Of a stretch of 24,000 nucleotides of DNA, positions 1,542 to 23,838 are shown piece by piece. The stretch is from Tepidisphaeraceae bacterium (GTDB taxonomy: Bacteria > Planctomycetota > Phycisphaerae > Tepidisphaerales > Tepidisphaeraceae). The notes under the pieces were generated by a model. That model had not been told where the DNA came from and ran no database searches. It saw only the letters and a program-made list of their open reading frames with translations. Both the position numbers and the translations under genes were made by a program. Numbering within the stretch: position 1 is the stretch's first letter; each line of letters begins with the position of its first letter. Where the stretch lies: assembly GCA_049515255.1 (NCBI GenBank), contig JBEKUH010000036.1, positions 13,800 through 37,799 of the forward strand. The letters are read 5' to 3'.

Positions 1542-1581
1542 CCGCTTCGTGCCTTCGTGTCTTAGTGGTCCAATATTCTTT
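1542..1581 (+). repeat. Copy A of a ~40-bp tandem-octamer element (ccgcttcgtgccttcgtgtcttagtggtccaatattcttt)
   Basis: Copy A differs from copy D (3439-3479) at one base over 40 nt. It lies about 80 nt upstream of the clpP paralog-1 start. Confidence 0.9.
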
Positions 1582-1662
1582 TTTTGATTGAAACTCCTCG
1601 CCATGGCGATTGACGCTACCAATCATCGCGCATACGATCCGCTCGCTGGAAATAGGAGACGA

Positions 1663-2367
1663 ATGGAACTATTTGATCCGAATAAAAGGCCGATGCGGAT
1701 GCCGCCGGCTTCGGCAGGGACGCCCATGCAACCGGTTGCCATGCCCGTGGCGATGCCCGGTCCGCCGGGTGGGGGTTACAATCGTTACCGTGAGATGACG
1801 CTGGAGGAAATGCTCCTGGAAAACCGGGTGCTTTTCCTTGTTGGCGAGATCAATCACGTCAGCGCCAGCCGAATTATGATGCAGATGTTGTATCTCCAGA
1901 GCGTCAAACGCGATCTGGATATCAACCTCTACATCAACAGCCCCGGCGGCGTGGTGGATGACACGCTGGCGATCTACGACATCATGAAATTCCTCAGTTG
2001 CGACGTCGCCACCTACTGCATCGGCCGCGCCGAGAGCGGCGGGGCGATTGTTTTCATGGCCGGGAAAAAGGGAAAGCGCTTCATCCTGCCCAACGCCAAG
2101 GTGATGATTCACCAGCCGTTCGGCGGCGTTTACGGACAGGCGGCCGACATCCAGATTCAGGCGGACGAAATCCTCAAAACCAAGGAAACGCTGATCAACA
2201 TTATGTCCAAATGCACCGGCCAGCCGGTCGAACGGATTCGCGATGACAGTGAGCGCGACCGGTTTTTCGATGCCGAGCAGGCTGTGAAATACGGCATTTG
2301 CGACGAGGTTCTTGGCGAGGAGGCGGCCGCGACCATGGTGGTCCCGGACTCCAACAAATCGAGATAA
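1663..2367 (+). CDS. clpP: ATP-dependent Clp protease proteolytic subunit, paralog with a non-canonical Pro/Met-rich N-terminus
   Basis: The ClpP core motifs are present: LYINSPGGVV, a Ser in GRAESGGA, a His in VMIHQPFGG and an Asp in SERDRFF. The start at 1663 is chosen for the strong SD aggag (1654-1658). The ORF itself is open from 1588. Confidence 0.85.
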   Translation: MELFDPNKRPMRMPPASAGTPMQPVAMPVAMPGPPGGGYNRYREMTLEEMLLENRVLFLVGEINHVSASRIMMQMLYLQSVKRDLDINLYINSPGGVVDDTLAIYDIMKFLSCDVATYCIGRAESGGAIVFMAGKKGKRFILPNAKVMIHQPFGGVYGQAADIQIQADEILKTKETLINIMSKCTGQPVERIRDDSERDRFFDAEQAVKYGICDEVLGEEAAATMVVPDSNKSR

Positions 2368-2397
2368 ATTGCGGAGTGATTTCTTGGGGCCCAACTG

Positions 2398-2799
2398 ATG
2401 CGATATCTCGCCATCGATCATCTGGCCATGTGCTGCCACGACGTGGAACGTCAGGCGGATTGGTATTGCACGCAGTTCGGCATGAAGCGGATTGCAGTGG
2501 ATGGCAAAACACCCCCGGCGGTGCTGATCGGATTCGAGGGCAACACCGGCGGCGGGGCGATGATGGAACTCATGCCCGTGCGCGATCCCGGCGCGGATGC
2601 CGACACATTCGCCCGATTCCAGCACGGCATGCGGCACTTCGCCATCCGCGTCACCGATTTCGAAGCCGCCTACGCCCGCCTGAAGGATTTGGGCGTGAAA
2701 TTTCTATTCGAGCCCGTCCCGGCAATGGGCGGTGGGAAAACGGTTTCATTCCGCGATCCCGAAGGGAACGAAGTGCAAATTGTGGAACGAAAAAACTGA
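2398..2799 (+). CDS. VOC (glyoxalase/bleomycin-resistance/dioxygenase) superfamily protein
   Basis: The protein is 133 aa. It has an IDHLAMCCHDV start, a second-half MRHFAIRVTDFE and a C-terminal FRDPEGNEVQIVE, the usual paired beta-alpha-beta-beta-beta VOC pattern with metal-ligand-like H, H and E. Confidence 0.75.
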   Translation: MRYLAIDHLAMCCHDVERQADWYCTQFGMKRIAVDGKTPPAVLIGFEGNTGGGAMMELMPVRDPGADADTFARFQHGMRHFAIRVTDFEAAYARLKDLGVKFLFEPVPAMGGGKTVSFRDPEGNEVQIVERKN

Positions 2800-2820
2800 A
2801 CCACGAAGGGCTTAAGAGAA

Positions 2821-2857
2821 GAATATTTAACCACTAAGACACGAAGACACGAAGCGG
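2821..2857 (-). repeat. Copy B of the tandem-octamer element, inverted orientation
   Basis: The reverse complement (ccgcttcgtgtcttcgtgtcttagtggttaaatattc) matches copies A, C and D with 2-3 mismatches. It forms an inverted pair with copy C across a ~100-bp spacer. Confidence 0.9.
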
Positions 2858-2957
2858 TTTTCTAAGTTCGGGAGTGTGCGTGCGGTAGGGACAAAATAAT
2901 TGAGTTGGATTCAGAAGAAATGAAACGAAGAACTGAATGGTGCTGGAACATCGAAGC

Positions 2958-2999
2958 CCGCTTAGTGTCTTCGTGTCTTAGTGGTTCAATATGTATTTT
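2958..2999 (+). repeat. Copy C of the tandem-octamer element
   Basis: The sequence is ccgcttagtgtcttcgtgtcttagtggttcaatatg. It sits directly upstream of the GxxExxY gene and is in direct orientation with copy D, which sits directly downstream. Confidence 0.9.
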
Positions 3000-3023
3000 G
3001 CATTTTCGGAAAGGCCACGAGGA

Positions 3024-3428
3024 ATGAACGTAGCCAACCCAAACGCGAAGTTGAGTGAAGAAATGGAGCGTGTCGCGACGCAGATTGTCGATTCCGCGTT
3101 CAAGGTTCACTCGGTTTTGGGTCCTGGCCTGTTGGAAAGTGTTTATGAAATCTGCCTTGGATATGAGCTGAAAGAGCGAGGATTGCAGATTCGTCGGCAG
3201 GTCGTGGTTCCAATTAATTATGGGGGAGTCATTCTGGATGATGGACTGAGAATCGACTTGCTCGTTCAGGAATCAGTTATCATCGAGTTCAAAACCGCCG
3301 AACAACACAATGCTCTTTACGAGGCCCAACTACTGACTTACTTGAAACTTTCTGGAAAACGACTCGGCTTTCTGATCAATTTCAATGTTAAACTCATAAA
3401 GGACGGAATAAGACGAGTAATCCTATGA
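3024..3428 (+). CDS. GxxExxY-family protein (PD-(D/E)XK nuclease-like fold)
   Basis: The signature is present as GPGLLESVYEICLGYEL (G-L-L-E-S-V-Y), followed by RIDLLVQESVIIEFKT (a D...E-x-K-like pattern). The size (~135 aa) is typical. The start at 3024 is preferred because the ATG at 2991 lies inside repeat copy C. Confidence 0.85.
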   Translation: MNVANPNAKLSEEMERVATQIVDSAFKVHSVLGPGLLESVYEICLGYELKERGLQIRRQVVVPINYGGVILDDGLRIDLLVQESVIIEFKTAEQHNALYEAQLLTYLKLSGKRLGFLINFNVKLIKDGIRRVIL

Positions 3429-3438
3429 TCCACGAGAA

Positions 3439-3479
3439 CCGCTTCGTGCCTTCGTGTCTTAGTGGTTCAATATTCTTTC
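3439..3479 (+). repeat. Copy D of the tandem-octamer element
   Basis: The sequence is ccgcttcgtgccttcgtgtcttagtggttcaatattctttc. It ends 7 nt before the clpP paralog-2 ATG (3487). Confidence 0.9.
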
Positions 3480-3486
3480 TTCCGCA

Positions 3487-4137
3487 ATGGAAAACGCTAT
3501 GTCTGAAAACACTTTAATCCCGATCGTCATTGAAAAAAGCGGCCGCGGTGAGCGGGCGTATGATATTTATTCGCGCCTGCTCAAGGATCGCATCATCATC
3601 CTGGGCGGTGCGGTCACCGATGAGGTGGCCAACACGATCATTGCCCAATTGCTCTTCCTTTCCAACGACGATCCCAAGAGCGATATCAAGTTTTACATCA
3701 ACTCACCCGGCGGCAGCGTGTCGGCTGGATTGGGGATCATCGACACCATGCACTTCCTCCGCTGCGATGTGGAAACGACCTGCATCGGCATGGCGGCGAG
3801 CATGGGCGCTTGCCTGCTGGCCGCCGGGAAAAAGGGAAAGCGATATGTGCTGGCCAACAGTCAGGTGATGTTGCACCAGCCGCTCATCGGCGGCGTGCTG
3901 CAGGGACCGGCGACTGATTTGGGCATCGAAGCGGTTCACATGCTGCGGCTGCGTGATCGTCTTTACAAACTGATGGCCGGCTTCACGGGCAAGGCGGCGG
4001 AAGTGATTCACCGCGATTTCGACCGGAACAAATGGCTCTTTGCCGAGGAAGCCGTCGAATACGGCTGCGCCGACCGCGTGCTGGAACGCATCCCCGAACT
4101 GATCCGCCCGGTCACTGAAGACGACGACAAGGAATAA
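3487..4137 (+). CDS. clpP: ATP-dependent Clp protease proteolytic subunit, paralog with a canonical N-terminus but Asn at the catalytic Asp position
   Basis: The N-terminal region is canonical ([28 protein letters not shown]). The Ser is present in GMAASMGA and the His in VMLHQP. The position that aligns by eye with E. coli Asp171 reads FDRNKWLF. Confidence 0.9.
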
Positions 4138-4143
4138 TCTCGT

Positions 4144-4758
4144 TTGCCTCGGTTTCCCTGGGCCATCATCGCAATATCCACGGCGATTTCGCTGGCCGGT
4201 TGCAGCAACATGCCGGACAAGGCCAATATCGAATTGCGGAAACAAATCCAGTCGATGCAGGCCAACATCGATCAGCTCAATCATCAGCACGATGCGGATG
4301 AGGCGACCATTCGCGGCCTGGAATCCAGCGCGACCTCCGTGCCGACATTGCCCCCGGATGAAATCGACCAACTCGTCACCGCATCGGGATTTCGATTTGG
4401 AAAAGTCACCGGCGGCTGGCGCGCCGATCCAAACGCGCCGGCCGATACAGAGTTGAAAGTGTTTGTCGTTCCCACCGACGAGCAGGGCGACGATCTCAAG
4501 GCCGCGGGTTCGTGGCACGTGGAATTGTTCGATCTGAATCTAAAAGACCCGCGCATCGGCCAATGGGATTTCGATCCCGCCGCCGCGCGCAATGCCTGGG
4601 TCGGGACATTTCTGGTGTACATGTATGTGCTGGATTGCCCGTGGCAAACCGCCCCGACGCACGAGAAACTTTTGGTGCGCGTGACATACACGGATTTGCT
4701 GACCCATCGGGTTTTCACCGAGGATTACGATCACGCGATGGTGAAGATCGCTCAGTGA
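4144..4758 (+). CDS. Hypothetical lipoprotein with a coiled-coil-like N-terminal segment
   Basis: The gene has a TTG start 6 nt after the clpP stop. The signal peptide ends in the lipobox LAGC (AISTAISLAGCSN). The segment IELRKQIQSMQANIDQLNHQH looks heptad-like. I recognised no family. Confidence 0.6.
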   Translation: MPRFPWAIIAISTAISLAGCSNMPDKANIELRKQIQSMQANIDQLNHQHDADEATIRGLESSATSVPTLPPDEIDQLVTASGFRFGKVTGGWRADPNAPADTELKVFVVPTDEQGDDLKAAGSWHVELFDLNLKDPRIGQWDFDPAAARNAWVGTFLVYMYVLDCPWQTAPTHEKLLVRVTYTDLLTHRVFTEDYDHAMVKIAQ

Positions 4759-4778
4759 TCGGCGAGTAAACTCGCCGG

Positions 4779-4994
4779 TTATAGAGAGTCAGAAAAATAC
4801 TGTCAGTGAAATTCTTTGGTGACGCATCTTGTCCCCTCTCCCGGTACTCTGGGAGAGGGTTAGGGTGAGGGCGATTTCGCTCGAATTATTCGAACGATTT
4901 TTCAATTCGGCCCTCACCCCTGCCCTCTCCCGGAATACCGGGAGAGGGGAAAAATTCATGGCGCGACTGACACGGTTTTTCTGACTCTCTATAA
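4779..4994. repeat. Nested inverted-repeat element filling the convergent gap between the lipoprotein gene and ftsI
   Basis: The outer arms are 4779-4807 and 4966-4994 (ttatagagagtcagaaaaa...tgtcagt, 26/29 matched). The inner arms are 4832-4872 and 4910-4950. Each inner arm contains its own 9-bp hairpin, ccctctccc...gggagaggg. Confidence 0.9.
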
Positions 4995-5000
4995 ATAGAT

Positions 5001-6929
5001 TTAATTCTGCCCGCTACTGGTGACCAGCCGCTCGGGGGCCAAGGGAGTGGAGCCGAAAGAACGATCCGTGTACATCTTGTCCGAATAATCAAAAATAACA
5101 CTCGGCATCGGCGCGGACGGCAGGGGAAGATCGGGCGAACTGGGGACATCCATGTAGCTGAGTGCCCGCTCGATGAAATCGCACGTGCCGGGCGCCGACA
5201 CGTCCGCGCCGTAATAGGCGATCGATGGATCAGGTTCGTGAATCACCATCACGACCACGAGGCGAGGATTTTCGTACGGGGCCATCGCCATGAAGCTGCT
5301 GTTGAATCGCGTGGCACTGTAGCCGTGGCCTTCGGCGATGTGGGCAGTGCCGGTTTTTGCGGAGATATTCCAGACTTTGCTGCGATGTCCCCTGGCAGTG
5401 CCGCGGATCACCACATCGCACAGGATTCTCCGCATGGTCGCAGCCGTGTCGGCGTCGATGACCGGCGACGCATCAGAAGTATCATCCGACGGACGCGAGA
5501 GCACTTCGCCATCGGGTCCGACCGTTCCCATGACAACATGCGGTCGCACCAGATGTCCGCCATTGGCGAGGGCAGAAAATGCCCGCGCCAGTTGCAGCGG
5601 CGTGACCATCACCTCATATCCCTGAGCAATCGACTCGGTGCTGTCGCGCTGCCATTTGCTCAGGGGTCGTACCAATCCCGGATTTTCGCCGGGAAGATCA
5701 ATGCCGGTGGTTCGACCAAAACCGAAACTCGTGATAGCGCGGTACAAGCGCGCGTTGCCCATGCGCTCGCTGAGTTGCGACATGACGATATTGCTGGATT
5801 TCACTAGGCCATCCCACGTGCAGAGATTTCCGTAATAATGATCATCCGTGATCGTCCGGCCGTACGGCGTTTGCCAGGTGATTCCGGGAACAGTCCACAT
5901 TTCCCACGGCGTCGTCACGTGCCACATGAGCGCCGGGGCGGCGAAGAACGGCTTGAAGGTCGATCCCGGTTCATACGGCGCGACCAGCGCGCTGTTTCGC
6001 CGCATATCCGGCAGCGAATCGCTCAGCGTTTGTGGATTAAAAGTCGGATAATTCGCCAGCGCGAGGATTTCGCCATTGCGCGGGTCCATGGCGATGAACT
6101 CGCCGCGCTTGGCTTTGTTTTGCTCGATGGTTCGCTGCAATTCCTCTTCAGCGAGCATCTGCAGATTGGCGTCGATGGTGAGAACGAGATGCGTGCCGTG
6201 TTTTGGCGGAAGATAATCGTCATCATCCACGCCGATGGGTTGGCGGCGGGCGTCTTTGGTCTGCCGCTCAAATCCCGGTTGGCCGGCGAGCATGGTGTTG
6301 AATTTCAGTTCCAATCCGTCGAGGCCCGAACCATCGCCGCCGCATCCGCCAAGCACGTGGGCCGCGAGTGATCCCATCGGATAAACCCGCGCGCTGCTGG
6401 CAACGATGCCGACTCCTTTGAGATGCAGCGCGTCGATCTGGGCGACGGCGTTGTCATCGAGGTCGTCCGCCACCTTCACGAATCGGCTGGTGGAACGATC
6501 GCCAAGAAGTTGCGCCAACTCGTACGGATCCTTCCCGATGATCGAGCCGAGATTTTGCAACGCCTGATCCATGTCCAGCAGGCTGCGGCCATTTTCCTGG
6601 AAATAATCCTGCATGAATTTCGGATCCACAAATAGGCTGCGGACCTGAATCGTGCCGGCCATGATCAAGCCGTTGCGATCGGAAATATTCCCGCGCCTGG
6701 GCGGAAGGATGAGGGTTTCATGCTCCTGCCGATCCGCCCGGTCAATACTGATTTCCCGGCCATAGGTTTGCAGATACGCCACCCGCCCGACCAGCATGGA
6801 AAGCAGGGCGAGGACGATGCAGATCATGACGGCGCAGCGGCTAGCGGAAAAATTTGGCATGTGGAACGTCCGGTAATACATCGGCAGAATTTGCCGGGGG
6901 AATCGAATTTTAGATAGCCGCACGATCAC
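5001..6929 (-). CDS. ftsI: Class B penicillin-binding protein (FtsI/PBP3-like peptidoglycan D,D-transpeptidase)
   Basis: The protein has an N-terminal TM helix (VMICIVLALLSMLVG) and the motifs SxxK (GSTFKPF), SxN (KSSNIV) and KTG (AKTGTAH). It sits downstream of the ftsL-like gene and rsmH. The start is uncertain: GTG 6929, ATG 6881 or ATG 6860. Confidence 0.85.
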   Translation of the reverse strand: MIVRLSKIRFPRQILPMYYRTFHMPNFSASRCAVMICIVLALLSMLVGRVAYLQTYGREISIDRADRQEHETLILPPRRGNISDRNGLIMAGTIQVRSLFVDPKFMQDYFQENGRSLLDMDQALQNLGSIIGKDPYELAQLLGDRSTSRFVKVADDLDDNAVAQIDALHLKGVGIVASSARVYPMGSLAAHVLGGCGGDGSGLDGLELKFNTMLAGQPGFERQTKDARRQPIGVDDDDYLPPKHGTHLVLTIDANLQMLAEEELQRTIEQNKAKRGEFIAMDPRNGEILALANYPTFNPQTLSDSLPDMRRNSALVAPYEPGSTFKPFFAAPALMWHVTTPWEMWTVPGITWQTPYGRTITDDHYYGNLCTWDGLVKSSNIVMSQLSERMGNARLYRAITSFGFGRTTGIDLPGENPGLVRPLSKWQRDSTESIAQGYEVMVTPLQLARAFSALANGGHLVRPHVVMGTVGPDGEVLSRPSDDTSDASPVIDADTAATMRRILCDVVIRGTARGHRSKVWNISAKTGTAHIAEGHGYSATRFNSSFMAMAPYENPRLVVVMVIHEPDPSIAYYGADVSAPGTCDFIERALSYMDVPSSPDLPLPSAPMPSVIFDYSDKMYTDRSFGSTPLAPERLVTSSGQN

Positions 6930-6957
6930 GACATTGAGCCGGCCCGCCCTCGGGAAT

Positions 6958-7002
6958 AAAAAGGGGACATCACTGATTATTAATCAGTGATGTCCCCTTT
7001 TT
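6958..7002. terminator. Perfect 45-nt palindrome (22+1+22) with an A5/T5 flank, shaped like a bidirectional intrinsic terminator
   Basis: The sequence aaaaaggggacatcactgatta-t-taatcagtgatgtccccttttt is perfectly self-complementary. It starts 25 nt downstream of the ftsL-like stop and ends 28 nt upstream of the longest ftsI ORF start. Confidence 0.6.
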
Positions 7003-7026
7003 CTCTCCGGGCAACCGAGAGTTGCG

Positions 7027-7311
7027 TTATTCGCCGACATCTGGCGTGGTAATCCAATTCTTTTCGCCCAGGGGATTCGATGCGGGGGCGGACATTTTTA
7101 AGTCCTGGCCTTTCAATGTCGCCGTTACCGCATTGGGCGCGGTGCATTCGGCGATGTTGAGTTGTTGATTCCAGAGTTCTGATTGGCTGGATTCGATGTG
7201 ATTGTGCAACGCATCGATCTGGTACGTCAGATTCAATTGCTGCTGACGCAGCTCCAGCAGGGCCACGCCGATGGCCATGCTCCATGCGAGGCATAGGAGG
7301 AGCTTGAGCAT
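7027..7311 (-). CDS. FtsL-like small bitopic membrane protein (TM helix plus coiled coil)
   Basis: From ATG 7311 the sequence is MLKLLLCLAWSMAIGVALL (TM) followed by ELRQQQLNLTYQIDALHNHIESSQSELWNQQLNI (heptad-like). The gene lies between rsmH and ftsI, as ftsL does. The call rests on position and architecture, not on sequence identity. Confidence 0.55.
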   Translation of the reverse strand: MLKLLLCLAWSMAIGVALLELRQQQLNLTYQIDALHNHIESSQSELWNQQLNIAECTAPNAVTATLKGQDLKMSAPASNPLGEKNWITTPDVGE

Positions 7312-9202: not shown

Positions 9203-9239
9203 AAAAAGAAAGCGAGGGTCGATCGGATTCGACCCTCGC
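9203..9239 (-). terminator. Intrinsic terminator of the PEP-CTERM gene
   Basis: An 11-bp GC-rich stem (gcgagggtcga / tcgaccctcgc, 9212-9222 and 9229-9239) has a 6-nt loop. On the minus strand it is followed by tttcttttt. It lies 37 nt downstream of the gene's stop. Confidence 0.75.
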
Positions 9240-9275: not shown

Positions 9276-9968
9276 TCAAATCACTCGCTGACGGCGCTTG
9301 CTCAGGAGATTCAGAACAATCACGCCCGCCAATCCACCGAGGCCAGTCCAGGCCGCGGCGGGAAGGGGAACGGGCGATGATCCGCCGCCACCCGTGATGG
9401 GGATTTCCTTAAGAAAGAAATCGGACGGCAGGCCGGAGGTGACCGGATTTGCATCCATCACCAGATCGCCGCCGTTAACGCCATACCCGATCGAGGCGGT
9501 ATCGCCGATACCCAGCGTTCCACCGGAAAGAGTGTATGACGTTCCATCGGGAGTCAGGCTGTCCGACGTCCAGGGTGAGATCGAGGTGAACGTGCTGGTG
9601 AACGATTGACCACCAGCCATCGGGCTGATCACCAGGAACTGAAAGCCGCTGAAGGGCGTCGTTGTGCTGTTGGTGATGCTTTCATCGAGAATCGCGATTT
9701 GCTGGGCGGCAGCGGTGTAGCTGGCCTGCGTAAAGGTGATCGCGATGCCTTCAGTGCTTTGGAAATCTGCGAACTTTTCCAGACCAAGCTCAACACCAGT
9801 TGTGTTGTCAGCTACGAGAGAAAGACCGACGCCCACGGGGAAAGAAATCTTCCAACCATCCACCGTATCACCACTTTGGATGACGGTCGACGCCGAAGCT
9901 GATTTCGATCCAACCATTGCAATGGCACCCACGGCCATTGCGCTTAACATCAAAGTACGACGAATCAT
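9276..9968 (-). CDS. Secreted protein with a PEP-CTERM-type C-terminal sorting signal
   Basis: The signal peptide is MIRRTLMLSAMAVGAIAMVGSKSASAS. The C-terminus is SPVPLPAAAWTGLGGLAGVIVLNLLSKRRQR: a VPxP motif, a TM helix and a basic cluster. A strong SD ggagg precedes the ATG. Confidence 0.7.
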   Translation of the reverse strand: MIRRTLMLSAMAVGAIAMVGSKSASASTVIQSGDTVDGWKISFPVGVGLSLVADNTTGVELGLEKFADFQSTEGIAITFTQASYTAAAQQIAILDESITNSTTTPFSGFQFLVISPMAGGQSFTSTFTSISPWTSDSLTPDGTSYTLSGGTLGIGDTASIGYGVNGGDLVMDANPVTSGLPSDFFLKEIPITGGGGSSPVPLPAAAWTGLGGLAGVIVLNLLSKRRQRVI

Positions 9969-11063: not shown

Positions 11064-11287
11064 CGAAGAAAGACAGTTTCCACCACGGAGACACGGAGAG
11101 CACGGAGGGGAAAGAAGAGTTTGAACCGCAGAGAGCGCAGAGGAATAAAATACATGCATTCAATTTTATTTTCTTTCTCTGCGGCCCTCTGCGGTGAAAA
11201 TTGATTTGAAGGAATTAAGTAAACCGCAATATAGCCGAATGCCACCTCCGTGAACTCCGTGTCTCCGTGGTGGAAATGATTTCTTCG
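11064..11287. repeat. Nested inverted-repeat element built from tandem cacggaga and cgcagaga units around an A/T-rich hairpin core, with no ORF inside
   Basis: The outer arms are 11064-11108 and 11245-11287 (tttccaccacggagacacggag...cacggagg). The inner arms are 11126-11143 and about 11177-11195. The core at 11144-11176 contains aataaaat...attttatt. Confidence 0.9.
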
Positions 11288-11307
11288 TACTACAATCCAC
11301 CGCTCGA

Positions 11308-12769: not shown

Positions 12770-13200
12770 ACCCCGCGACCAGCCCGATGCCCGAGATCAA
12801 CGCCTCGCTCAACGCCCTCAGCGCGGTGCTGATCGTGATCGGATTTTTCTTCATCAAATCCGGCCGATACCGCGCACACGGCTGGACGATGGTCCTGGCG
12901 ACACTCGTCTCCACAATCTTTTTAGCCTGCTATCTCACTTACCACATCCGTCACGGCGAAAAGACCACGCACGCGCATCCGGGAATTTTGCGCGATGCAT
13001 ATCTGATCGTTCTCCTGCCTCATTTATTTTTTGCGGTGGTGTTACTGCCGATGATTTTCGTCACGCTACGCCGCGCCTGGCGGCGTGATTGGGCCAGCCA
13101 TCGCCGCATGAGCGTGCCGACCTTTTGGGTATGGATTTACGTTTCGCTAAGCGGAGTCGCGGTGTATTTCATGCTGTATCACACTTCGCTGGCGACGTGA
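12766..13200 (+). CDS. DUF420 (CtaM-like) integral membrane protein
   Basis: The protein is 144 aa with four hydrophobic helices and an EINASLNALSAVLIVIGFFFIK start. An ATGA overlap with the SCO1 stop suggests translational coupling. Pairing of DUF420 with SCO1 and cytochrome oxidase genes is the usual context. Confidence 0.7.
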   Translation: MNPATSPMPEINASLNALSAVLIVIGFFFIKSGRYRAHGWTMVLATLVSTIFLACYLTYHIRHGEKTTHAHPGILRDAYLIVLLPHLFFAVVLLPMIFVTLRRAWRRDWASHRRMSVPTFWVWIYVSLSGVAVYFMLYHTSLAT

Positions 13201-13201
13201 G

Positions 13202-13301
13202 GAATCGGGTTTCGGGTCTCGGGTTTGGGGTTTCGGGTGAAAAAACGATCGGTCTTTGGTATTTCCCCGAAACCCGACACCCGAAACCCGAACCCCGATT
13301 C
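13202..13301. repeat. Inverted repeat of tandem ttcgggt heptamers that fills the convergent DUF420/scpB gap exactly (possible bidirectional terminator)
   Basis: The left arm is 13202-13237 (gaatcgggtttcgggtctcgggtttggggtttcggg). The right arm is 13266-13301 (cccgaaacccgacacccgaaacccgaaccccgattc). About 31 of 36 positions are complementary. Confidence 0.85.
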
Positions 13302-13302
13302 T

Positions 13303-13941
13303 TCACCGCGTCGGCTGCAAACCGTCTTCCGATTGCGGCAGATCCTTCAGACTGTTCAATCCGAACAATTCCAAAAATCGGCGGGTGGTGCCATAGAGGA
13401 TGGGCCGGCCCGGTTCTTCCGCTCGGCCGGCGATTCTAACAAGATGCTTTTCCATCAGATTGCGAATCGTCTCCCCGCACGCCACGCCGCGGATGGCTTC
13501 GATGTCGGCTCGCAGGATCGGCTGTTTATAGGCGATGATCGCCAACGTCTCGAGCGCCGCTTTGGTCAGCTTGGCGTCGATCTCGCGCTGGTGGAGTTTT
13601 TTTAGATATTCGCCGAATTCCGGCAGGGTGAGCACCTGATATCCGCCGGCGACCTGCTCGATGCGGAAGGATCGATTGGTTTCTTCGTAGGATTGATTGA
13701 GTTTGCCGATGGCCTGACGAATCGGCCGAGTCGTGTCCAGGCCCAGCAATTCCGCCAATCGGCCGGCCGTCAGCGGATGATGCGTCGCCAGCAGCAGCGC
13801 CTCGACGGGCCGGGGATCAATTTCGGGCACGGGGGCGCTGGAATCTTCCTCGATTGGCTCCGGCTCCGACATTCCATCGGGAATCTCGTTCGCCTCCGGC
13901 GCTTCTTCCGTCTCCATTTCGTAATCCTTTACCAATCGCAT
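13303..13941 (-). CDS. scpB: Segregation and condensation protein B
   Basis: The motifs are VEALLLATHHPLTAGRLAELL, IEQVAGGYQVLT, LETLAIIAYKQPILRADIEAIRGV and GRPILYGTTRRFLELFGL. Confidence 0.85.
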   Translation of the reverse strand: MRLVKDYEMETEEAPEANEIPDGMSEPEPIEEDSSAPVPEIDPRPVEALLLATHHPLTAGRLAELLGLDTTRPIRQAIGKLNQSYEETNRSFRIEQVAGGYQVLTLPEFGEYLKKLHQREIDAKLTKAALETLAIIAYKQPILRADIEAIRGVACGETIRNLMEKHLVRIAGRAEEPGRPILYGTTRRFLELFGLNSLKDLPQSEDGLQPTR

Positions 13942-17232: not shown

Positions 17233-17832
17233 TTATTTGGTTGCTGGCGCCGGCGGGAACTCAATCCCCGCATAAACTTCAGACAACGGTAAGTTCACAC
17301 CGATGCTCTGCAATTTCGCGGTCGCCTCACGGCCTTCGAAAAAGAACAATTTCCAAGCTCCCTCTTCTTGCCTGAGGAAAACTTCCACAAGCGCCGTTTG
17401 CTGTGAGACAAGCACATACTCCTGCAGGGACTCCAGGCGGAGATATTGAACGAATTTGTCCGCACGGTCATAAGACTCTGTCGAAGGCGAGAGAACCTCC
17501 ACGACAACTTTGGGATTGGTAATCGTTGTGCGAGCGGAATCCAACGGATCGAATTGCGGATCGCCGCAGATGACCAGCGCATCGGGATATGAATAAAGAA
17601 CCGTTTTGGTAATGCGCACGCGGAGATTGCTATCGGCGACTTTGCATGGTTTGCCTTTGAGTTGTTGACGCAACTCTCCGATGGTATTGGCGATGATCAA
17701 ACTGTGCTCGTAAGTTCCACCCGACATGGCAATAATCTGACCATCGCGAAATTCGTGCTTTTCCAGCGCGGTGCGTTCGAATCGGAAGTATTCTTCCAGT
17801 GTCATTCGTGGGGATTGCGGGGCGCTGGTCAT
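17233..17832 (-). CDS. Uma2/DUF820 family putative endonuclease (PD-(D/E)XK-like), copy 1
   Basis: The motifs are MTLEEYFRFE, YPDALVICGD, VVVEVLSPSTESYDRADKFVQY and LQEYVLV. The gene lies 9 nt after the spoVR stop and 7 nt before the pgl start. Confidence 0.8.
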   Translation of the reverse strand: MTSAPQSPRMTLEEYFRFERTALEKHEFRDGQIIAMSGGTYEHSLIIANTIGELRQQLKGKPCKVADSNLRVRITKTVLYSYPDALVICGDPQFDPLDSARTTITNPKVVVEVLSPSTESYDRADKFVQYLRLESLQEYVLVSQQTALVEVFLRQEEGAWKLFFFEGREATAKLQSIGVNLPLSEVYAGIEFPPAPATK

Positions 17833-17841: not shown

Positions 17842-19371
17842 TTATACCTGATGCCCGGGTTTGGGCATCTCATCATGAATGGTCTGCTGCTTGGGCTGAT
17901 CGCCGGCGAAGCTGAAGAGGATCATGTCATCGTCGATCCTCGCCTGTAAATGCACGGGGCGTTGCCAGATTTTGTAGACATTTTTCAGCGTTTCCACTGC
18001 GAACTTTATCTCCAGGTCGGCGCCGTTGTGTTTGTGGGCCATGTAAAGCTCGCCGCGATTGGCGTAATTGCCGTCGGCCACATAAATGAACGGCCGGCCC
18101 ATGTTGGTGAGATGATAAAGCATCGTCTTTTTGATGCGCTGCGGATCTCGGCTGATGATCCGCAGCTGGCCGGTGTGCGGGTCGCGGCCATATTGATAGA
18201 ATTTGTGCTTCTCGATGAACTCAGGCGTCATGAATTCGTCGATGAAGTTCACATCGTTATAAACTCGACGGACTTCGAAAATCTTTTCCCGACCCAATCC
18301 GAGCCCCTTGTCCCATTTCTTTTTCTCGCCGAGGTTGTCCGATTCCTCATACGCTTTGCCGAATTTTCCTTTGTTCCAGCGATCTTCAATGTCGCGGAAA
18401 AGTTCCAAGCCGATTTTGTAGGGATTAAAATTCCCCGGCGGCATGTGGACGGTGCCGCTATGATGGTCGGCATAGTCGATGATTTCCTTGGCCTCGACAA
18501 AATGCTTGGTCATCAGCGTGCTGTGCCAATAGCTGGCCCAGCCTTCGTTCATCACTTTGGTCATGCCCTGTGGCGCGAAGTAATACGCCTCTTCACGAAC
18601 GATGGAGAGACAATCCATTTGCCAATCTTCCAGCCGCGCATGTTGCAGGAGATATTGCAGCACATCACGCGTCGGCCGGGCGGGGGAGACATGCCGCATC
18701 TTCGCGCGCTCGTCCCGCAATTTTTTCGCCTCGGCTTCGAGCACTTCCGGTGGGTTGATCCAGCGATCCAGATAGTCCTTCGCCTTGAATTTTGCGATGT
18801 CATCCTGCCGATGCGGCTCGGTGGCCTTTTCTTCGATTGGGCCGCGATTGAGAAACATGCTGTGGGCATCGATCAGGTCTTCGATGCTCAGGCAGATATC
18901 GAGGAATTTTTCAACAGTGTCGAAACCCTGTTTCTCGATGTGCCGGCGGATGCGCGTGGAGTGATTCGCCATCTCATCGATCATTTTTCGATTGGTCTGG
19001 CTAAACCACAGGTTGTTTTTGAAAAAATCCGCGTGGCCGTAAACGTGGGCGATCACCAGCTTTTGATCCACCAGTTGATTCGATTCCTGCAGATATGCGT
19101 AGCAGGGATCATTGTTGATGACCATCTCATAGATTCGCCCGAGTCCGTAGAAATGCTGTTTGCGAAGTCGTTCGTATTCCGCCCCGAATCGCCAGTGCGG
19201 ATATCGCTGCGGAAATCCGCCGTAGGCGGCGAGCTGATTCATCTGCTCGTAATCGCACATCTCGAAAATAACGGGGAAGAAATCCAGACCGTAGGATCGG
19301 GCGCGCTCACGAATCTGCTTCTTGGCAGCCAGAAGCTCGGCGGGGAATGGACCTACGAGGTGCGACGCCAT
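17842..19371 (-). CDS. spoVR: SpoVR family protein
   Basis: The protein is 509 aa. It has the family-typical segments [38 protein letters not shown] and EGWASYWHS. Confidence 0.85.
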
Positions 19372-19457
19372 TGGCTAATTCTACCCCAAAAACCGTCCAA
19401 AATCGCGGGCTGCACGGTGGCGATTTGTGGTATCATCGACAAGACGGGAGCTTTGTT

Positions 19458-20084
19458 ATGACGGTAAGGACACTGCGAGACGCCGAACGGGATTACTCGA
19501 GGGTTGTTCCACTGACGGTGGAGCAATATCACGAGATGATCGCCGAGGGGATTTTGGAGGAAGGCAAGCCAATCGAATTGATCGACGGGCTGTTGGTGCG
19601 CAAAGACCGAAGCCGACAGGGAGGAGAATCTATGACGGTCGGGTACGAGCATGCGTTGGTGGTGCAGAGTCTTTCGGAGTTGAATGAACTCTTGAAAGAT
19701 CATGGATGTCACATGAGAACTCAGAATCCGATCACACTGCCGCCAAATAGCGAACCCGAACCGGACGGCGCCCTTGTGCGCGGAGATCGGGGGAATTACC
19801 GCGTTCGACATCCGATGCCGGCCGACATTCTGGGGGTAGTCGAGGTCGCCGACAGTTCTCTCAAGGACGATCGCACAATCAAGCAACGCCTTTATGCCGA
19901 CGCGGGGATCGCATTGTACGTCTTGATCAATCTCGTGGATCATGCCATTGAGGTCCGCACGCAACCAGTGTCGGGCGAAGGGCGATATGCTGCCGTGGCC
20001 ACTTTGCCCGTGGGGCAGACACTTTCGCTGCCATTGGCGGATGGCACGAAATTGGAAATTCCGACCGAGCGCTTGCTGCCCTGA
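19458..20084 (+). CDS. Uma2/DUF820 family putative endonuclease, copy 2
   Basis: The motifs are LTVEQYHEMIAEGIL, IELIDGLLV, EPEPDGALV and GVVEVADSSLKDDRTIKQRLYADAGIALYVLINL. ATG 19458 is preceded by gggag. Confidence 0.8.
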   Translation: MTVRTLRDAERDYSRVVPLTVEQYHEMIAEGILEEGKPIELIDGLLVRKDRSRQGGESMTVGYEHALVVQSLSELNELLKDHGCHMRTQNPITLPPNSEPEPDGALVRGDRGNYRVRHPMPADILGVVEVADSSLKDDRTIKQRLYADAGIALYVLINLVDHAIEVRTQPVSGEGRYAAVATLPVGQTLSLPLADGTKLEIPTERLLP

Positions 20085-20116
20085 AATTCATAAAATTACG
20101 GGGCAATCGCGGCGTG

Positions 20117-20719
20117 TCACTTAGCTGCGGCAAACACTTTGCTCAAATTCAACGAGAATCCGGGCAATTGTCGCGTCGTATATTTCTGATTTGCTTTTGC
20201 GATCTTCGGCTTCCACAACCCGCGCCAGCGGATCATTGCCGTCATCTGTTGTTTCTGGGCGTCGATAATCCAGTACTCACTAATTCCAAATTCGAGATAG
20301 TCGTCCGGTTTTTCGTGGTAATCCCGATTTGCCGAACTTGGGGAGACGATTTCGATCACAATCGCGGGCACCCAAAGCGACCAGACATCTTCCACATCCG
20401 GAGGCGGCGAAAGGTAAACGGATAAATCAGGATGCCGTTCCGATTGTGTCGCGGCAACCAATATTTTGCTTTCCATTCCACCAGTGATCGAATGAATCGT
20501 CTCCGGGTTGGCGTCCTGATATATGACCAATTGGTTTCGAGCCGCCTGCAGTTGCGCGAAATGCCGATGGTGAGGCACATCCGTCATTTCGATGACCCCT
20601 TTATTCAATTCAAAGATTTGCCCGTCACGCGATATCGCACGATCGAAATCGTCGAGCGACATGCGCCGGCCGTTATGTTCGGGGCCGATGACGCGAGGCT
20701 TGCGTAAAGTAGCAGGCAT
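20117..20719 (-). CDS. Uma2/DUF820 family putative endonuclease, copy 3
   Basis: The motifs are MSLDDFDRA, HPDLSVY and AIVIEIVSPSSANRDYHEKPDDYLEFGISEYWIID. The gene starts 35 nt after the pnp stop on the same strand. Confidence 0.8.
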   Translation of the reverse strand: MPATLRKPRVIGPEHNGRRMSLDDFDRAISRDGQIFELNKGVIEMTDVPHHRHFAQLQAARNQLVIYQDANPETIHSITGGMESKILVAATQSERHPDLSVYLSPPPDVEDVWSLWVPAIVIEIVSPSSANRDYHEKPDDYLEFGISEYWIIDAQKQQMTAMIRWRGLWKPKIAKANQKYTTRQLPGFSLNLSKVFAAAK

Positions 20720-20754
20720 ATCTGAATAAGTATAGCAGAATCAGAGACGCCGGA

Positions 20755-23064
20755 TTAATCCCGACGCGGCCCGCGGTCGCCGCCGCGGCCACGTCCGCCG
20801 CCTCCCCCGCGACCACCACCGCCACCGCCACGTTGTCCGCCGCCGCCACCGTAGCCGCGATCGCCGCGGGGTTCGCGTGGGCGGAAGTTTCCCTCGCCGC
20901 CTTCATCGGGACTGCCGGCGGGCGCGCCGACGGGTTCGGGATCGCTCAATCCCTCTTCCTTCATCGCGGCCTTGCGGCTCAATTTGATTCGGCCCTGATC
21001 GTCGATCAAGATCACCTTCACGCGAACCTCGTCGCCGATGTTCACGAAGTCCGTCACGTTTTGCACGTAACGGTCGGACAATTCCGAGACGTGGCACAAT
21101 CCATCGGTCTCCGGAGCGATCTCGATGAACGCGCCGAATTCCTTGATGCTGACGACCTTGCCGGAATAAATTTTTCCGACCTTGACCTCGGCCGTGATCG
21201 CCTCGACGAGATCGCGGGCTTTCTCGGCAGATGCCTGATCGACGGAGCTGATGAACACTGTGCCATCGTCTTCGATGTCGATGTTGGCGCCGGTGTCTTC
21301 CTGCAGTTTCTTGATGTTCTTGCCGCCGGGGCCGATGAGTTTGCCGATTTTTTCCGGATCGATTTTGACAGTGAGCAGCCGCGGGGCGAACTTGCTGATC
21401 TCCGCCCTTGGCGCGGGAAGCACAGCAGTCATTTTATCCAGAATGGTCAGCCGAGCCTCACGAGCGCGGTGCAATGTGTCTCGTATGATCTTGTAATCGA
21501 TGCCCTCGATCTTGATGTCGAGTTGGATGGCCGTGATTCCTTCGGTGGTGCCGCAGACTTTGAAATCCATATCGCCGAAATGATCTTCCTCGCCGATGAT
21601 GTCGGTGAGAAGAACCGATCGATCGCCTTCCTTGACCAGGCCGATGGAAATTCCCGCGACTGGCCGAGTGATCGGGACGCCGGCATCCATGAGCGCCAGG
21701 CATCCGCCGCAACTGCTGGCCATGGAACTGGAGCCGTTGGATTCCAGAATATCGCTGATGACGCGCACGGTGTAGGGGAATTGCTCGATACCCGGCAGTA
21801 CGGCGATGAGACTGCGCTCAGCCAGCGCGCCATGGCCGATTTCTCGCCGACCGGGTCCACGAATTGGACGAACTTCGCCAACGCTGTAGCTGGGGAAGTT
21901 GTAATGCAGCATGAATTTCTGGCTGTATTCGTCGATCAATCCATCGACCATCTGCTCATCGCTGCTGGTGCCGAGGGTGACCGTGCACATCGCCTGGGTT
22001 TCGCCGCGGGTGAATACGGCCGAGCCGTGCACGCGCGGGAGAATGCTCACCTGGCAATTGATCGGGCGAATCGTGTGGTAATCACGTCCATCCGGCCGGA
22101 TGCCGCTGAGAATCGTCTCACGTGTCACTTGCTCTTCGACTTCGACGAAAATCGCGCGAATCTGCTTCTGTTTCTCTCGCGCTGCCACGATGGATTGATA
22201 GCTGGCATTGGGGTCGGTCACCGGCGGGGCCATTTCCTTGAGCAGATCATCACGAATCTGGTCGATGGCCTCGGAGCGATCGTGCTTGCCGGCTTTGCCT
22301 TTGACCTCGCGGATGCGATCGGTCACGCGGGCGCGGATGGAATCCACGAATCCGGGGTCGGGTTGTTTCATGTCGCCGACTTTTGGTTTGCCGGCTTTGC
22401 TGGCGAGTTCTTCGATCATTCCAACGATCTCGACAACAGCCCTGTGGCCAAATTCGATAGCATCGGCGACATCATCTTCCTTGGCCTCGCGGCCGCCGAG
22501 TTCGATCATGTTGACGAAATGCTTGGTGCCGGAAACGACCAAATCGAAATCGCTGTATTCAAGTTGTTCGACGGTGGGATTCAGGATCAGTTTTCCTTCG
22601 ATCCGACCGACACGCACGTGGGCAATCGGCGTGATGAAGGGAACGTCGCTGATGGCAACCGCAGCGCTGGCGGCGGCGCCGGCGAAGATATCTGGATCAT
22701 TCTCACCATCGAACGCCAGCACGTTCAATTGAATCTGCACCTCGTCCATGAATCCCTTGGGGAACAGCGGGCGCAGCGGGCGGTCGATCAGGCGAGCGGT
22801 GAGAATCTCCTTGGTAGTGGGGCGGCCTTCGCGCTTCATGAATCCGCCGGGGAATTTGCCGGCGGCGGCGCGGCGTTCACGGTAATCCACCTGCAGCGGG
22901 AAAAAGTCGATCCCCTCGCGTGGATTGGCGCGGGCGACGGCGCCGAAGACGACGGTCTCGCCATATTGAACAGTCACTGCTCCGCCGGCGAGCTTTGCGA
23001 ATGTGCCGGTTCCGATCACCAATCGACGTCCGCCGATCTGGCGTTCAACTTCTATTGCTTGCAT
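20755..23064 (-). CDS. pnp: Polyribonucleotide nucleotidyltransferase (PNPase) with a C-terminal Gly/Arg-rich extension
   Basis: The protein has two RNase PH-like halves, a KH motif ([20 protein letters not shown]) and an S1 domain ([20 protein letters not shown]...CHVSEL). The start at ATG 23064 ([15 protein letters not shown]) fits the family N-terminus. The ORF is open to 23118. Confidence 0.92.
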
Positions 23065-23098
23065 GAAAAAAAGCCCTCGTTCAGCCCCAGTTTGGTTA

Positions 23099-23158
23099 CC
23101 ACAGATGGACAAATGCAATCAGTTTTTGTCACAACTGTCCGCATTTGTGCATCTGTGG
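23099..23158 (-). promoter_or_regulatory. Long imperfect stem-loop in the rpsO-pnp intergenic region (pnp leader)
   Basis: The arms 23099-23116 (ccacagatggacaaatgc) and 23141-23158 (gcatttgtgcatctgtgg) are complementary at 17 of 18 positions, with a 24-nt loop. The structure lies 35 nt upstream of the pnp start. Confidence 0.5.
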
Positions 23159-23241
23159 CTGGTCACTCTCCGTCATGCCGGGGCTGATTCGGGCAGGGGG
23201 AAAGCTGTTCATCTCGCCGGAAGAATCTTCCGGCTACAACA

Positions 23242-23511
23242 TTATTTGCGCAAGCCGAGCCGGCCGATGATCTGCTGATATCGGTTGCGATCTTCGCGGG
23301 TCAGATATTTCAGCAATTGATTTCGTCGGCTGACGAGCTTGAGCAGTCCGCGGCGGGACGAATGGTCTTTCTTGTGCGCGTCGAAATGCCCGCGCAGTTG
23401 GTTGATCCGTTCGGTCAGCAGCGCGATCTGCACCTCCGGCGAGCCGGAGTCTTTATCGTGAATCTTGTAATCTTTAACGATTTTCTGTTTTGCTTCAGCG
23501 GAAATAGACAT
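23242..23511 (-). CDS. rpsO: 30S ribosomal protein S15
   Basis: The protein is 89 aa. The segments [39 protein letters not shown] and [12 protein letters not shown] are present. An SD gggag lies upstream, and the gene sits upstream of pnp as in most bacteria. Confidence 0.95.
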
Positions 23512-23740
23512 TCAAACACTCCCAGTCACCAAGCCGCCAGAACTGCGTTCGACCCTCCGAACGCCACCGGCCTGCCGGTCATTACGAATCCTTGGGAAAC
23601 GAGAATAGAGGGGCGCGGAGCGGCGGTCAAGTGGATGTGGAACGAAGGTTGCGCCGGGCGCAGAAACATTCCTTCCTTCAATTGCTCCGTCACCACTCGC
23701 CTTTTCTCCAAACCTTGGGGCCTCTAACCAAAAGAAAAAA

Positions 23741-23838
23741 TTAGCCACTGATAAACACCGATGACACCGATTAATAAAGAAAGAATTTATTTCCGGCCTT
23801 TTCTCATCGGTGCAAATCGGTGCCCCATCGGTGGCTAA
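23741..23838. repeat. Inverted repeat of tandem caccgat units around an A/T-rich core, upstream of rpsO
   Basis: The left arm is 23741-23771 (ttagccactgataaacaccgatgacaccgat). The right arm is 23805-23838 (catcggtgcaaatcggtgccccatcggtggctaa). The terminal ttagcca/tggctaa and the caccgat/atcggtg units are complementary. The core is taataaagaaagaatttatttcc. Confidence 0.8.

Follow-up and report, generated by a model that had tools for sequence, protein, structure and literature searches.

We analysed a 24,000-nucleotide stretch of DNA from a Tepidisphaeraceae bacterium (contig JBEKUH010000036.1, positions 13,800 to 37,799; hereafter the window) whose gene spacers hold very stable hairpins with arms made of short tandem units. 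These hairpins fall into at least three families, namely a CAC-type, a heptamer type that resembles the cyanobacterial sequences called STRR (short tandemly repeated repetitive), and a CCCTCnCCC/GGGnGAGGG-type. The CAC-type is a cross-phylum, motif-defined, operon-embedded family that is specifically associated with genes of the GxxExxY (PDDEXK_3) family. CAC-type and heptamer hairpins look the same and yet follow different evolutionary rules, the former keeping a motif and the latter keeping the match between arms. Our favoured reading, held at slightly less than even confidence, is that the CAC-type palindromes and the putative PD-(D/E)XK nuclease encoded by the GxxExxY genes are paired in a manner like that of REPINs, which are hairpins of repetitive extragenic palindromic (REP) sequences, and RAYTs, the REP-associated tyrosine transposases.

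An initial annotation of the window had described five loci (A to E below) in which tandem-unit arms face inverted copies of themselves and had taken them for one family. All five are present by Tandem Repeats Finder (TRF), inverted-repeat search and folding, and they are intergenic and adjoin stop codons as described; the window as a whole holds six or seven such hairpins, with units of 7-10 nt. Specifically, TRF reports period-8 arrays at 1545-1567, 2832-2854, 2961-2983, 3442-3464, 11084-11107 and 11246-11269, two arrays of period 7 with ~4.8 copies each (13205-13238, 13266-13298) and, at 23805-23833, a looser one of period 11. Inverted-repeat arms lie at 2819-2862 / 3434-3477 (93% complementary), 2823-2869 / 2946-2992 (87%), 11077-11108 / 11245-11276 (94%), 13188-13237 / 13266-13315 (82%), 4829-4872 / 4910-4953 (86%) and 4779-4807 / 4966-4994 (90%). 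The core, described as usually about 30 nt, is in fact a loop of 28-136 nt. Every locus has a minimum free energy (MFE) z-score of -5 to -17 on both strands when compared with dinucleotide shuffles. In 1.67 Mb, made up of the window and related loci, we counted 183 strong hairpins, of which 77 have periodic arms; a first-order Markov control gave 1 and 0, respectively, which excludes a chance origin and bears out the proposed excess of tandem-unit arms. The periods most often seen among the 77 are 7 (42 hairpins), 8 (14), 10 (10) and 9 (8). Window arms pair with their own partners at scores of 29, 26, 9, 21 and 9, and arms of other loci reach at most 9. The proposed family structure is real, and extends far beyond this genome, but it is not that of a single family.

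The link to GxxExxY genes was established with a sample of 80 GxxExxY loci on one-genome-per-species contigs (sampled contigs are cited by L numbers). These come from at least eight phyla, with Planctomycetota, Verrucomicrobiota, Acidobacteriota, Bacteroidota, Ignavibacteria, Chloroflexota, Lentisphaerota, several Proteobacteria and others represented; most are from metagenome-assembled genomes (MAGs), and two isolates agree with them. The CAC-type form consists of an outer box (GAAGAA or TGAAC-like), AAC, three C-R-C-n-R-A-G-n units, a loop of about 20-140 nt and the inverted copy, with shared outer ends that read TGAAC / TTCAC ... GTTCA / GTGAA. At most of the 80 loci the best inverted repeat across the flanks of the gene is AAC followed by about three 8-nt units, in the variants CACCAAGR, CACGAAGR, CACAAAGR, CACAGAGR, CACGACGR and CGCCAAGR. 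Our arm detector (a C-R-C-n-n-n-G chain with 7-10 nt spacing and adjacent units at least 6/7 identical) imposes part of this motif; as a motif chain it finds 181 arms of at least three units against 0 in the control. Arms stand on both sides of 52 of the 77 GxxExxY genes, as compared with 1 of 836 other called genes at the same loci (Fisher p=2e-64), and 73 of the 77 have at least one arm. Over all sets, 286 of 311 arms have exactly three units, and 249 have an inverted partner within 150 nt or at cargo distance, leaving 62 without one. Among short-loop CAC-type hairpins the A/C-rich arm comes first in 46 and second in 13.

Copies that carry the open reading frame (ORF) have a gene of 125-135 aa, a 5' arm that ends 0-70 nt before its start codon and a 3' arm that begins 5-25 nt after its stop. 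For example, the gene lies between radA and an FAD gene in the isolate Bacteroides finegoldii and between fabD and fabG in the isolate Sphingomonas parapaucimobilis, and in both cases the arms adjoin the stop and start codons of the neighbours. The arms also surface in protein databases, where the N-terminal extensions NHQDTKTPR, LKHEEHEDHE and PQRHEDTKK of GxxExxY proteins are translated arms. Many database GxxExxY proteins start within the 5' arm, so that arms are annotated as coding sequence, and in S. parapaucimobilis (L209:410-838) the RefSeq GxxExxY coding sequence (CDS) crosses the 3' arm and stops at the ribosome-binding site of fabG. Among open-access papers we found none that describes the arm sequences or the flanks of GxxExxY genes, and the CAC-type is to that extent an undescribed palindromic spacer element of at least eight bacterial phyla and of phage contigs.

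A co-distributed nuclease gene had been proposed as something to seek elsewhere in the genome; a GxxExxY gene is found inside locus A itself. This locus (1542-3479), described as one inverted repeat, has one arm in one orientation against three in the other and encloses three genes, clpP1, a glyoxalase gene (glx) and the GxxExxY gene. Arm A1 (1542..1585, minus strand) is a solitary CAC-type arm upstream of clpP1 with its CAC array on the minus strand and the outer box CCAATATTCTT. A partial arm, TGAACCACGAAGG (2799..2811, plus strand), starts within the glyoxalase stop codon and is followed by A2 (2814..2869, plus strand; AAGAATATTTAAC-CACTAAGA-CACGAAGA-CACGAAG), the partner of both A3 and A4. 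By inverted-repeat search, TRF and folding, A3 (2946..3000, opposite orientation) closes an ORF-less hairpin with A2, and the loop of this fold (2870..2945) holds no detectable remnant of a GxxExxY gene. The 134-aa GxxExxY gene itself (3024..3428, plus strand) lies between A3 and A4, the latter (3432..3481, minus orientation) sitting directly past its stop codon and ending 5 nt before the clpP2 start codon. The best-matched pair of the locus is A2/A4 (93%), which brackets the gene. This same layout (an arm and an inverted arm separated by 106 nt, the gene 41 nt further on and another inverted arm 16 nt beyond it) is also seen in L025, L035, L046, L072 and L082.

A metagenome scan with ClpP2 gave 80 related loci at 80-91% protein identity, plus one (L087) from the window species at 100%. 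Set against these, a GxxExxY gene at the glx-clpP2 site is found in the window species only (L001-L004, L087), which indicates that the gene was either gained in this lineage or lost from all the others. At this site the closest relative (L088, 88%) carries a short ORF-less CACGAAG hairpin, GCCACGAAGACATGAAG ... CTTCGACTTCACGGC, that adjoins the shared flank CCGCAATGGA. In several metagenome contigs of the window species, an end falls at hairpin A or hairpin B (ends of L002 and L004-L006, at window positions 2748, 3400, 3410, 4949 and 5004).

The product of ORF 3024-3428 matches PF13366 (E=1e-37, 129 bits, cut-off 22) and TIGR04256 (E=2e-39, 135 bits, cut-off 35). H29, G33, G35, E38, D78, E88 and K90, among others, are invariant across 53 aligned homologues, and the invariance of D78, E88 and K90 indicates that the PD-(D/E)XK triad is intact. 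The AlphaFold model, with a predicted local distance difference test score (pLDDT) of 92, has its best PDB matches in Cas4 SSO0001, lambda exonuclease, the Argonaute-associated Cas4-like ACE1 and tRNA-splicing endonucleases, which hints weakly at a Cas4 / lambda-exonuclease-like fold. Taken together, the invariant triad and the modelled fold suggest that the nuclease is probably active. The family is very large, with at least about 8000 clusters and 60-70% identity across phyla, and it has almost no literature: we found no known function for it in open-access papers, and a 2012 survey of PD-(D/E)XK proteins lists it as of unknown function (PMC3424549).

What the CAC-type arms conserve was addressed by comparing arms position by position in elements with strict 8-nt spacing. 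At unit positions 1-8 the two arms match at 1.0, 0.9, 1.0, 0.52, 0.94, 1.0, 1.0 and 0.47 in 29 cassettes, and at 1.0, 0.94, 1.0, 0.39, 0.99, 1.0, 1.0 and 0.35 in 24 short-loop hairpins. Positions 1, 2, 3 and 7 are fixed by the search pattern and positions 4, 5 and 6 are free in it; nevertheless position 6 is always A and position 5 always a purine (match 0.94-1.0). At positions 4 and 8 the hairpins show 0.39 and 0.35 where base composition predicts 0.33 and 0.39, and the cassettes show 0.52 and 0.47 where 0.31 and 0.46 are expected. With these two positions at chance and the motif positions kept, what the arms preserve is a sequence motif, and over a quarter of the stem mismatches can arise freely. 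As there is no covariation at the free positions, many CAC-type stems are 3-bp blocks broken by mismatches. The initial annotation had held that pairing is kept while the sequence drifts, with arm-to-arm covariation as a check; this fails for the CAC-type and hence for most window loci, and we show below that it stands for the heptamer class. A wobble test, restricted to strands of certain sense, gave 89 G.U against 109 A.C transition mismatches in 74 cassettes and 19 against 12 in hairpins within the clpP operon. Pooled, there is no G.U excess (108 versus 121; a 2:1 excess is rejected at p=1.5e-9), and thus no positive sign of selection on an RNA helix. These comparisons point to sequence recognition of CAC-type arms rather than to selection on their pairing.

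Copies without the gene are common. We scanned IMG/VR by the arm pattern alone (AACCACnAAGnCACnAAGnCACnAAG) and found 58 arms in 41 stretches; no GxxExxY gene lies next to any of them, and tblastn over their 380 kb also found none. The usual layout of these phage copies is a gene, 10-20 nt, an arm, a 19-38 nt loop, the inverted arm, 9-35 nt and a gene, and their neighbours are ordinary phage genes such as that for a head-closure protein. Similarly, no GxxExxY gene is seen in 452 kb around clpP of relatives, while about 50 tandem-unit hairpins are present there. Many hairpins and no such gene in both sets indicate that ORF-less copies far outnumber ORF-bearing ones. A protein search of phage and plasmid collections with GxxExxY gave 0 phage matches and 7 plasmid records. 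BLASTX of the cores of ORF-less hairpins for GxxExxY remnants gave nothing significant except translated arms. In a tandem array of modules (L078), one module seems by eye to keep a GxxExxY 3' end (LKDGFKRLVV*) between its arms, with a non-significant BLAST match (E=0.15-0.26).

Signs of spread within a genome come from locus C, where the described hairpin (11064-11287) is present but is not a single one, since a CGCAGAG-unit hairpin nests in the loop of a CACGGAG-unit hairpin. The outer left arm (11064..11108, plus strand) has a GAAGAAA box, TTCCAC and three copies of CACGGAGA, the outer right arm (11245..11290, minus orientation) is its inverted repeat with TRF period 8, and the inner hairpin (11122..11200) reads TTGAAC-CGCAGAGAG-CGCAGAGG, an A/T-rich loop and CTCTGCGGCC-CTCTGCG-GTGAAAA. 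A second CACGGAG-type element in the same genome (L001:1145-1263) lies about 5.3 kb left of the window and about 16 kb from locus C. Compared by eye, it has the outer box of locus C (GAAGAAA..TTCCACCACGGAGACACGGAG ... CTCCGTGGTGGAAAT..TCTTC) and lacks the inner CGCAGAG hairpin. The CACGGAG copies would indicate duplicative spread together with insertion of one element into the loop of another. Overall, ~30 kb of the genome of the window species holds these two CACGGAG-type copies with the same outer box and the four CACGAAG arms of locus A, its other variants being distinct. No direct repeat is evident beside locus A, locus C or L001:1145; the palindrome runs on into the GAAGAA/TTCTTC box.

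Under our favoured reading, the two arms would be inverted arrays of a sequence-specific recognition motif and not primarily a helix under selection for pairing. The factor that reads them would most plausibly be the GxxExxY nuclease encoded between them, much as a RAYT gene is flanked by REP sequences, and ORF-less hairpins would be non-autonomous, REPIN-like copies. New copies, near-perfect palindromes at first, would be produced when an element inserts duplicatively into a spacer or into another element's loop, after which the free unit positions would decay and the motif positions would stay under selection. Being transcribed within operons, the elements may secondarily act on mRNA. Several points weigh against this reading. 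No transposition footprint in the form of a target-site duplication was found, and among seven contigs of the window species (98.4-99.96% identical) we saw no arm differences and no polymorphism in unit number or presence, so the units are not hypervariable on that timescale. Each window locus has its own unit variant, whereas the REPINs of a genome are nearly identical to one another; GxxExxY genes occur in large families of paralogues, unlike RAYTs, which are single-copy. Furthermore, ORF-less hairpins occur in sampled DNA stretches where no GxxExxY gene was seen, the PDB fold matches are weak (E about 1e-3, TM about 0.5) and generic for PD-(D/E)XK proteins, and binding or cutting of the motif by the GxxExxY protein is a prediction. 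Finally, the bias of the hairpins to co-directional spacers, described below, fits an mRNA-level role equally well.

The likeness to known systems is nonetheless closest here. REP and REPIN sequences depend on RAYTs with an HUH/Y1 (IS200/IS605-like) enzyme, their unit is a single imperfect palindrome with a GTAG head, and their copies are near-identical within a genome. As with REP sequences, bacterial interspersed mosaic elements (BIMEs) and REPIN-RAYT systems, the CAC-type consists of short palindromes found in spacers alone, mainly within operons and at the ends of genes; a long hairpin results where units stand in inverted pairs, inverted units flank a nuclease gene, and there are many ORF-less copies for each ORF-bearing copy (REPINs are the subject of PMC3116915). 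The differences are that the CAC-type enzyme is a PF13366 / TIGR04256 protein of PD-(D/E)XK fold and not an HUH/Y1 enzyme, the enzyme that defines REPIN/RAYT systems; that each arm has three tandem 8-nt motif units in place of the single palindrome with its GTAG head; and that unit variants differ within ~30 kb of one genome, the gene is multi-copy, and one motif is shared by many phyla and phages.

We consider it possible, though doubtful, that the hairpins are instead cis-acting mRNA elements, that is intercistronic or 3' stem-loops as REP/BIME and STRR sequences are thought to be, with GxxExxY genes merely lodging in their loops. Such stem-loops could block 3' exonucleases, serve as RNase III sites or couple translation by hiding a downstream start until the upstream ribosome arrives. 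Their genomic positions speak for this explanation. Using gene calls from our own iteratively trained codon-usage model, which recovers the Pfam-supported window genes, we find 55 host tandem-unit hairpins in co-directional, 6 in convergent and 3 in divergent spacers, against 41, 9 and 14 expected by spacer length (p=0.0009), a positional bias relative to genes that the initial annotation had suggested checking. Between co-directional genes, tandem-unit hairpins start a median of 6 nt after the stop and end a median of 15 nt before the next start, as compared with 38 and 88 nt for plain hairpins. The very stable folds, the hairpins between phage structural genes and the recurrence of a heptamer hairpin in the clpP1-clpP2 spacer of many species point the same way. 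Furthermore, a CAC-type hairpin absent from the initial list (23099..23158, CCACAGATGGACAAATGC..GCATTTGTGCATCTGTGG) lies in the rpsO-pnp spacer and pnp leader, overlapping the start of the longest pnp ORF. The same spacer in E. coli holds a hairpin that is cut by RNase III. The mRNA explanation is set back by the pooled lack of G.U over A.C, by CAC-type arms that do not covary at free positions, by the 62 of 311 arms that have no partner, and by a whole clade of relatives from whose clpP spacer the hairpin is absent. It is compatible with the REPIN/RAYT-like reading, as REP elements show.

The heptamer class is represented in the window by locus D (13188..13315), which has five copies of TCGGGTT, a 28-nt loop and five of CCCGAAA. 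Its place is exactly between the DUF420 and scpB stop codons, the two genes being convergent, and its complementarity (13188-13200, 13303-13315) extends about 12 nt into the last codons of both (..GCGACGTGA, other strand ..GACGCGGTGA), such that the element may have supplied both stop codons. Heptamer arms score a mean of 21.7 with their own partner versus 4.5 with foreign arms, and as few as 1.4% of pairings with foreign arms attain the lowest score of an own pair; there is no motif common to the loci. Arm-to-arm covariation in this class is, on these pairing scores, real, and either selection or conversion between arms would account for it. In 34 of 40 cases the first arm is the G-rich one (p=8e-6), a puzzling bias, since a palindrome has the same polarity whichever strand is read.

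The clpP operons of relatives show the same class in place. The order clpP1-(glx)-clpP2-lipoprotein is conserved among the related loci. The clpP1-clpP2 spacer has no heptamer hairpin in one clade, and in another clade it holds heptamer hairpins with the units GTTGCCA (L092, L131), GTTGCTG / GTTGCTA (L097, L108, L124), GTTGTCC (L100, L128), GTTGTCA (L107), ATTGCCG (L102, L153), GAATGCT (L113) or GGTCACT (L149, L164). Many of these differ by one or two substitutions, which fits drift in place with homogenisation, replacement being the alternative. The order of units is often not mirror-symmetric, as in L100.

These observations bear on a third explanation, that the arms are neutral mutational by-products in which slippage grows the tandem repeats and template switching or arm-to-arm gene conversion copies and homogenises the arms, with no function or factor involved. 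Its attraction lies in the heptamer hairpins, with locus-specific units that match between arms, the connected unit series GTTGCCA, GTTGCTA, GTTGCTG, GTTGTCA and GTTGTCC at the clpP spacer, the asymmetric unit order and the lack of wobble bias. We judge it unlikely overall, as it must face the biased polarity of both classes (34 to 6 for heptamer, 46 to 13 for CAC-type) and the constant unit number among strains, and does not account for a CAC-type motif kept across at least eight phyla and phages, for the fixed three units or for the exclusive association with one gene family. A purely mutational origin may apply to the heptamer class.

The nearest named relatives of the heptamer class are the STRR heptamers of filamentous cyanobacteria, which reportedly go back to Mazel in 1990 and Vioque in 1997. 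The shared traits are tandem heptamers in spacers that form hairpins, as at locus D and in the clpP spacers of relatives, and period 7 in 42 of the 77 periodic-arm hairpins. The unit CTGGTCA of some relatives resembles TTGGTCA, reportedly the STRR2 unit, and to our knowledge the rule that the G-rich arm comes first has not been reported for STRR. STRR sequences differ in that they occur in heterocyst-forming cyanobacteria, whereas the hosts here are Phycisphaerae-like Planctomycetota and other phyla, the closest relatives being Phycisphaerales and Tepidisphaeraceae MAGs; the units also differ from STRR1-3, and the 8-10 nt CAC-type class, which conserves a motif and carries a nuclease gene, is not STRR. 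In cyanobacteria the tandem 7-bp units are hairpin-capable, lie in spacers such as hupS-hupL and differ by locus; their function is unknown, with transcript stability or translational coupling proposed (PMC2670836), a proposal in keeping with an mRNA role for the present hairpins.

Some of the hairpins bound genes like cassettes, and an integron-like origin, in which they would be recombination sites around small gene cassettes as attC sites are, has to be weighed; we think it very improbable. In its favour, modules occur in arrays (L078, L059, L021), each with ...AAC-CAC and GTG-GTT... as its boundaries and with linkers of 12-25 nt between them, glx lies between two complete heptamer hairpins of one unit in L107 (2056-2686) and is present in some relatives and absent from others between clpP1 and clpP2, and the elements share with attC a length of about 90-130 nt, AAC ... 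GTT outer ends and a conserved architecture with little conserved sequence. However, no integrase gene lies within the window, and the outer boxes are ATTGAAC / GTTCAAT (TGAAC / GTTCA), not RYYYAAC / GTTRRRY. Arms have three units at 8-nt spacing, not two integrase boxes; the cassette stands between two arms and is not followed by one site; and insertions are single, in housekeeping operons, with no array next to attI.

Miniature inverted-repeat transposable elements (MITEs), with Correia, ERIC, RUP and Nezha elements, are alike in terminal inverted repeats, lack of coding capacity, spacer location and nesting, and the by-eye remnant in L078 (BLAST E=0.15-0.26) would suggest a MITE-like derivation from ORF-bearing elements by internal deletion. 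They differ from the CAC-type, for which no target-site duplication and no DDE or other transposase was seen, whose arms are motif arrays, and whose copies have low identity outside the motif. The intervening sequences of 23S rRNA also enclose a small ORF in a long inverted repeat inserted in a transcribed region, as the CAC-type does; the latter differs in lying in mRNA spacers with no sign of selection on RNA pairing. CRISPR arrays were rejected as a candidate, the units being 7-10 nt and contiguous with inverted arms, not 24-40 nt direct repeats with unique spacers. The initial statement that the loci cannot be tied to a named family agrees with this, with the attC comparison and with the Rfam search, which gave no match at gathering score and only sub-threshold chance miRNA matches at loci B and D.

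Ordinary Rho-independent terminators, which would have refuted the initial proposal, are an extremely improbable explanation. The stems are stable, contain G+C and stand at gene ends, and two loci lie between convergent genes; however, an intrinsic-terminator scan reported none of the loci, and it does find a canonical bidirectional terminator-like hairpin at 9212-9239. That hairpin, the only one in the first 14 kb, has an 11-bp stem and a T-run on the minus strand and lies between mraW and ORF 9276-9968. Loops of 28-136 nt are unlike those of an intrinsic terminator, which has a short G+C-rich stem, a 3-8 nt loop and a T-run immediately 3' to its stem. In addition, phage copies have a T-run before and not after the stem on both strands, cassettes sit inside operons (fabD-fabG and glx-clpP2), and convergent spacers are not enriched (6 observed versus 8-9 expected).

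The CAC-type members of the window are loci A, C (outer and inner) and E and the hairpin at 23099-23158. Locus E (23741..23838), upstream of rpsO, has 9-11 nt CACCGAT(GA) units, in the form TTAGCCAC-TGATAAA-CACCGATGA-CACCGAT, a loop and an inverted copy with indels. Related hairpins with CACAGATGAA units occur in relatives, and a decamer hairpin, AAC-CACAGATGAA-CACAGATGAA-CACAGAT, stands just after clpP2 in L102, L122, L123, L135, L153 and L159. In this clpP2-lipoprotein spacer the decamer hairpin is almost constant in sequence among several species, in contrast to the heptamer hairpin upstream of clpP2, which varies. At 23455-23569 (minus strand), overlapping the start region of rpsO, Rfam's ribosomal S15 leader matches below threshold (22.6 bits, gathering score 39.5).

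Locus B (4779..4994), whose arms had been read as tandem units, proves to have arms made of sub-hairpins and belongs to the separate CCCTCnCCC/GGGnGAGGG family. An outer inverted repeat (4779-4807 / 4966-4994) surrounds a composite palindrome (4829-4872 / 4910-4953) of CCCTCTCCC..GGGAGAGGG sub-hairpins and GGGTGAGGG. The sub-hairpin is also found in loci from Acidobacteriota, Verrucomicrobiota and Planctomycetota. Locus B is a conserved palindrome of a third kind, unrelated to the other two. A further hairpin shared across phyla, formed by TGTCATCCTGAGCGAAGCGAAGGATC with its inverse, occurs at L095:~640-800 and L026:13833-13920, in the former nested inside a CAGATG-unit hairpin of the glx-clpP2 spacer. 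A nearly perfect palindrome at 6951-7009, just upstream of PBP2, has 29-bp arms, a 1-nt centre and no tandem units (MFE -44 kcal/mol, z=-10).

By Pfam and NCBIfam, the genes around the hairpins are clpP1, glx, clpP2, a lipoprotein-like ORF, PBP2, mraW, rluA and an ABC-2 permease gene, with SCO1, DUF420, scpB, then SpoVR, three Uma2 genes, pnp and rpsO further along. The Uma2 genes (PF05685, putative restriction endonuclease; 17233-17832 minus, 19347-20084 plus and 20117-20719 minus) lie within 3.5 kb around SpoVR. Uma2 makes a second small family of PD-(D/E)XK-like type whose paralogues are numerous, and none of the three window genes is flanked by tandem-unit arms.

For the GxxExxY / PDDEXK_3 family, the flanking DNA motif defined here provides a testable substrate. 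The arms also explain odd N-terminal extensions, CDS calls that run through an arm and the breaking of metagenome contigs at these sites, and the heptamer class extends the STRR phenomenon, unexplained for 35 years, beyond cyanobacteria. A bolder proposal, which we regard as possible though doubtful, is that the CAC-type and GxxExxY together constitute a previously unrecognised mobile or selfish system, a PD-(D/E)XK counterpart of REPIN/RAYT. In it, hundreds of ORF-less hairpins would be mobilised or maintained by a 130-aa nuclease able to recognise three 8-nt motif units to either side of the gene that encodes it, and the system would be common to Planctomycetota, Verrucomicrobiota, Acidobacteriota, Bacteroidota, Chloroflexota, Ignavibacteria, Lentisphaerota, Proteobacteria and their phages. 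Should the nuclease indeed mobilise these hairpins, the REPIN/RAYT lifestyle would have been invented independently a second time.

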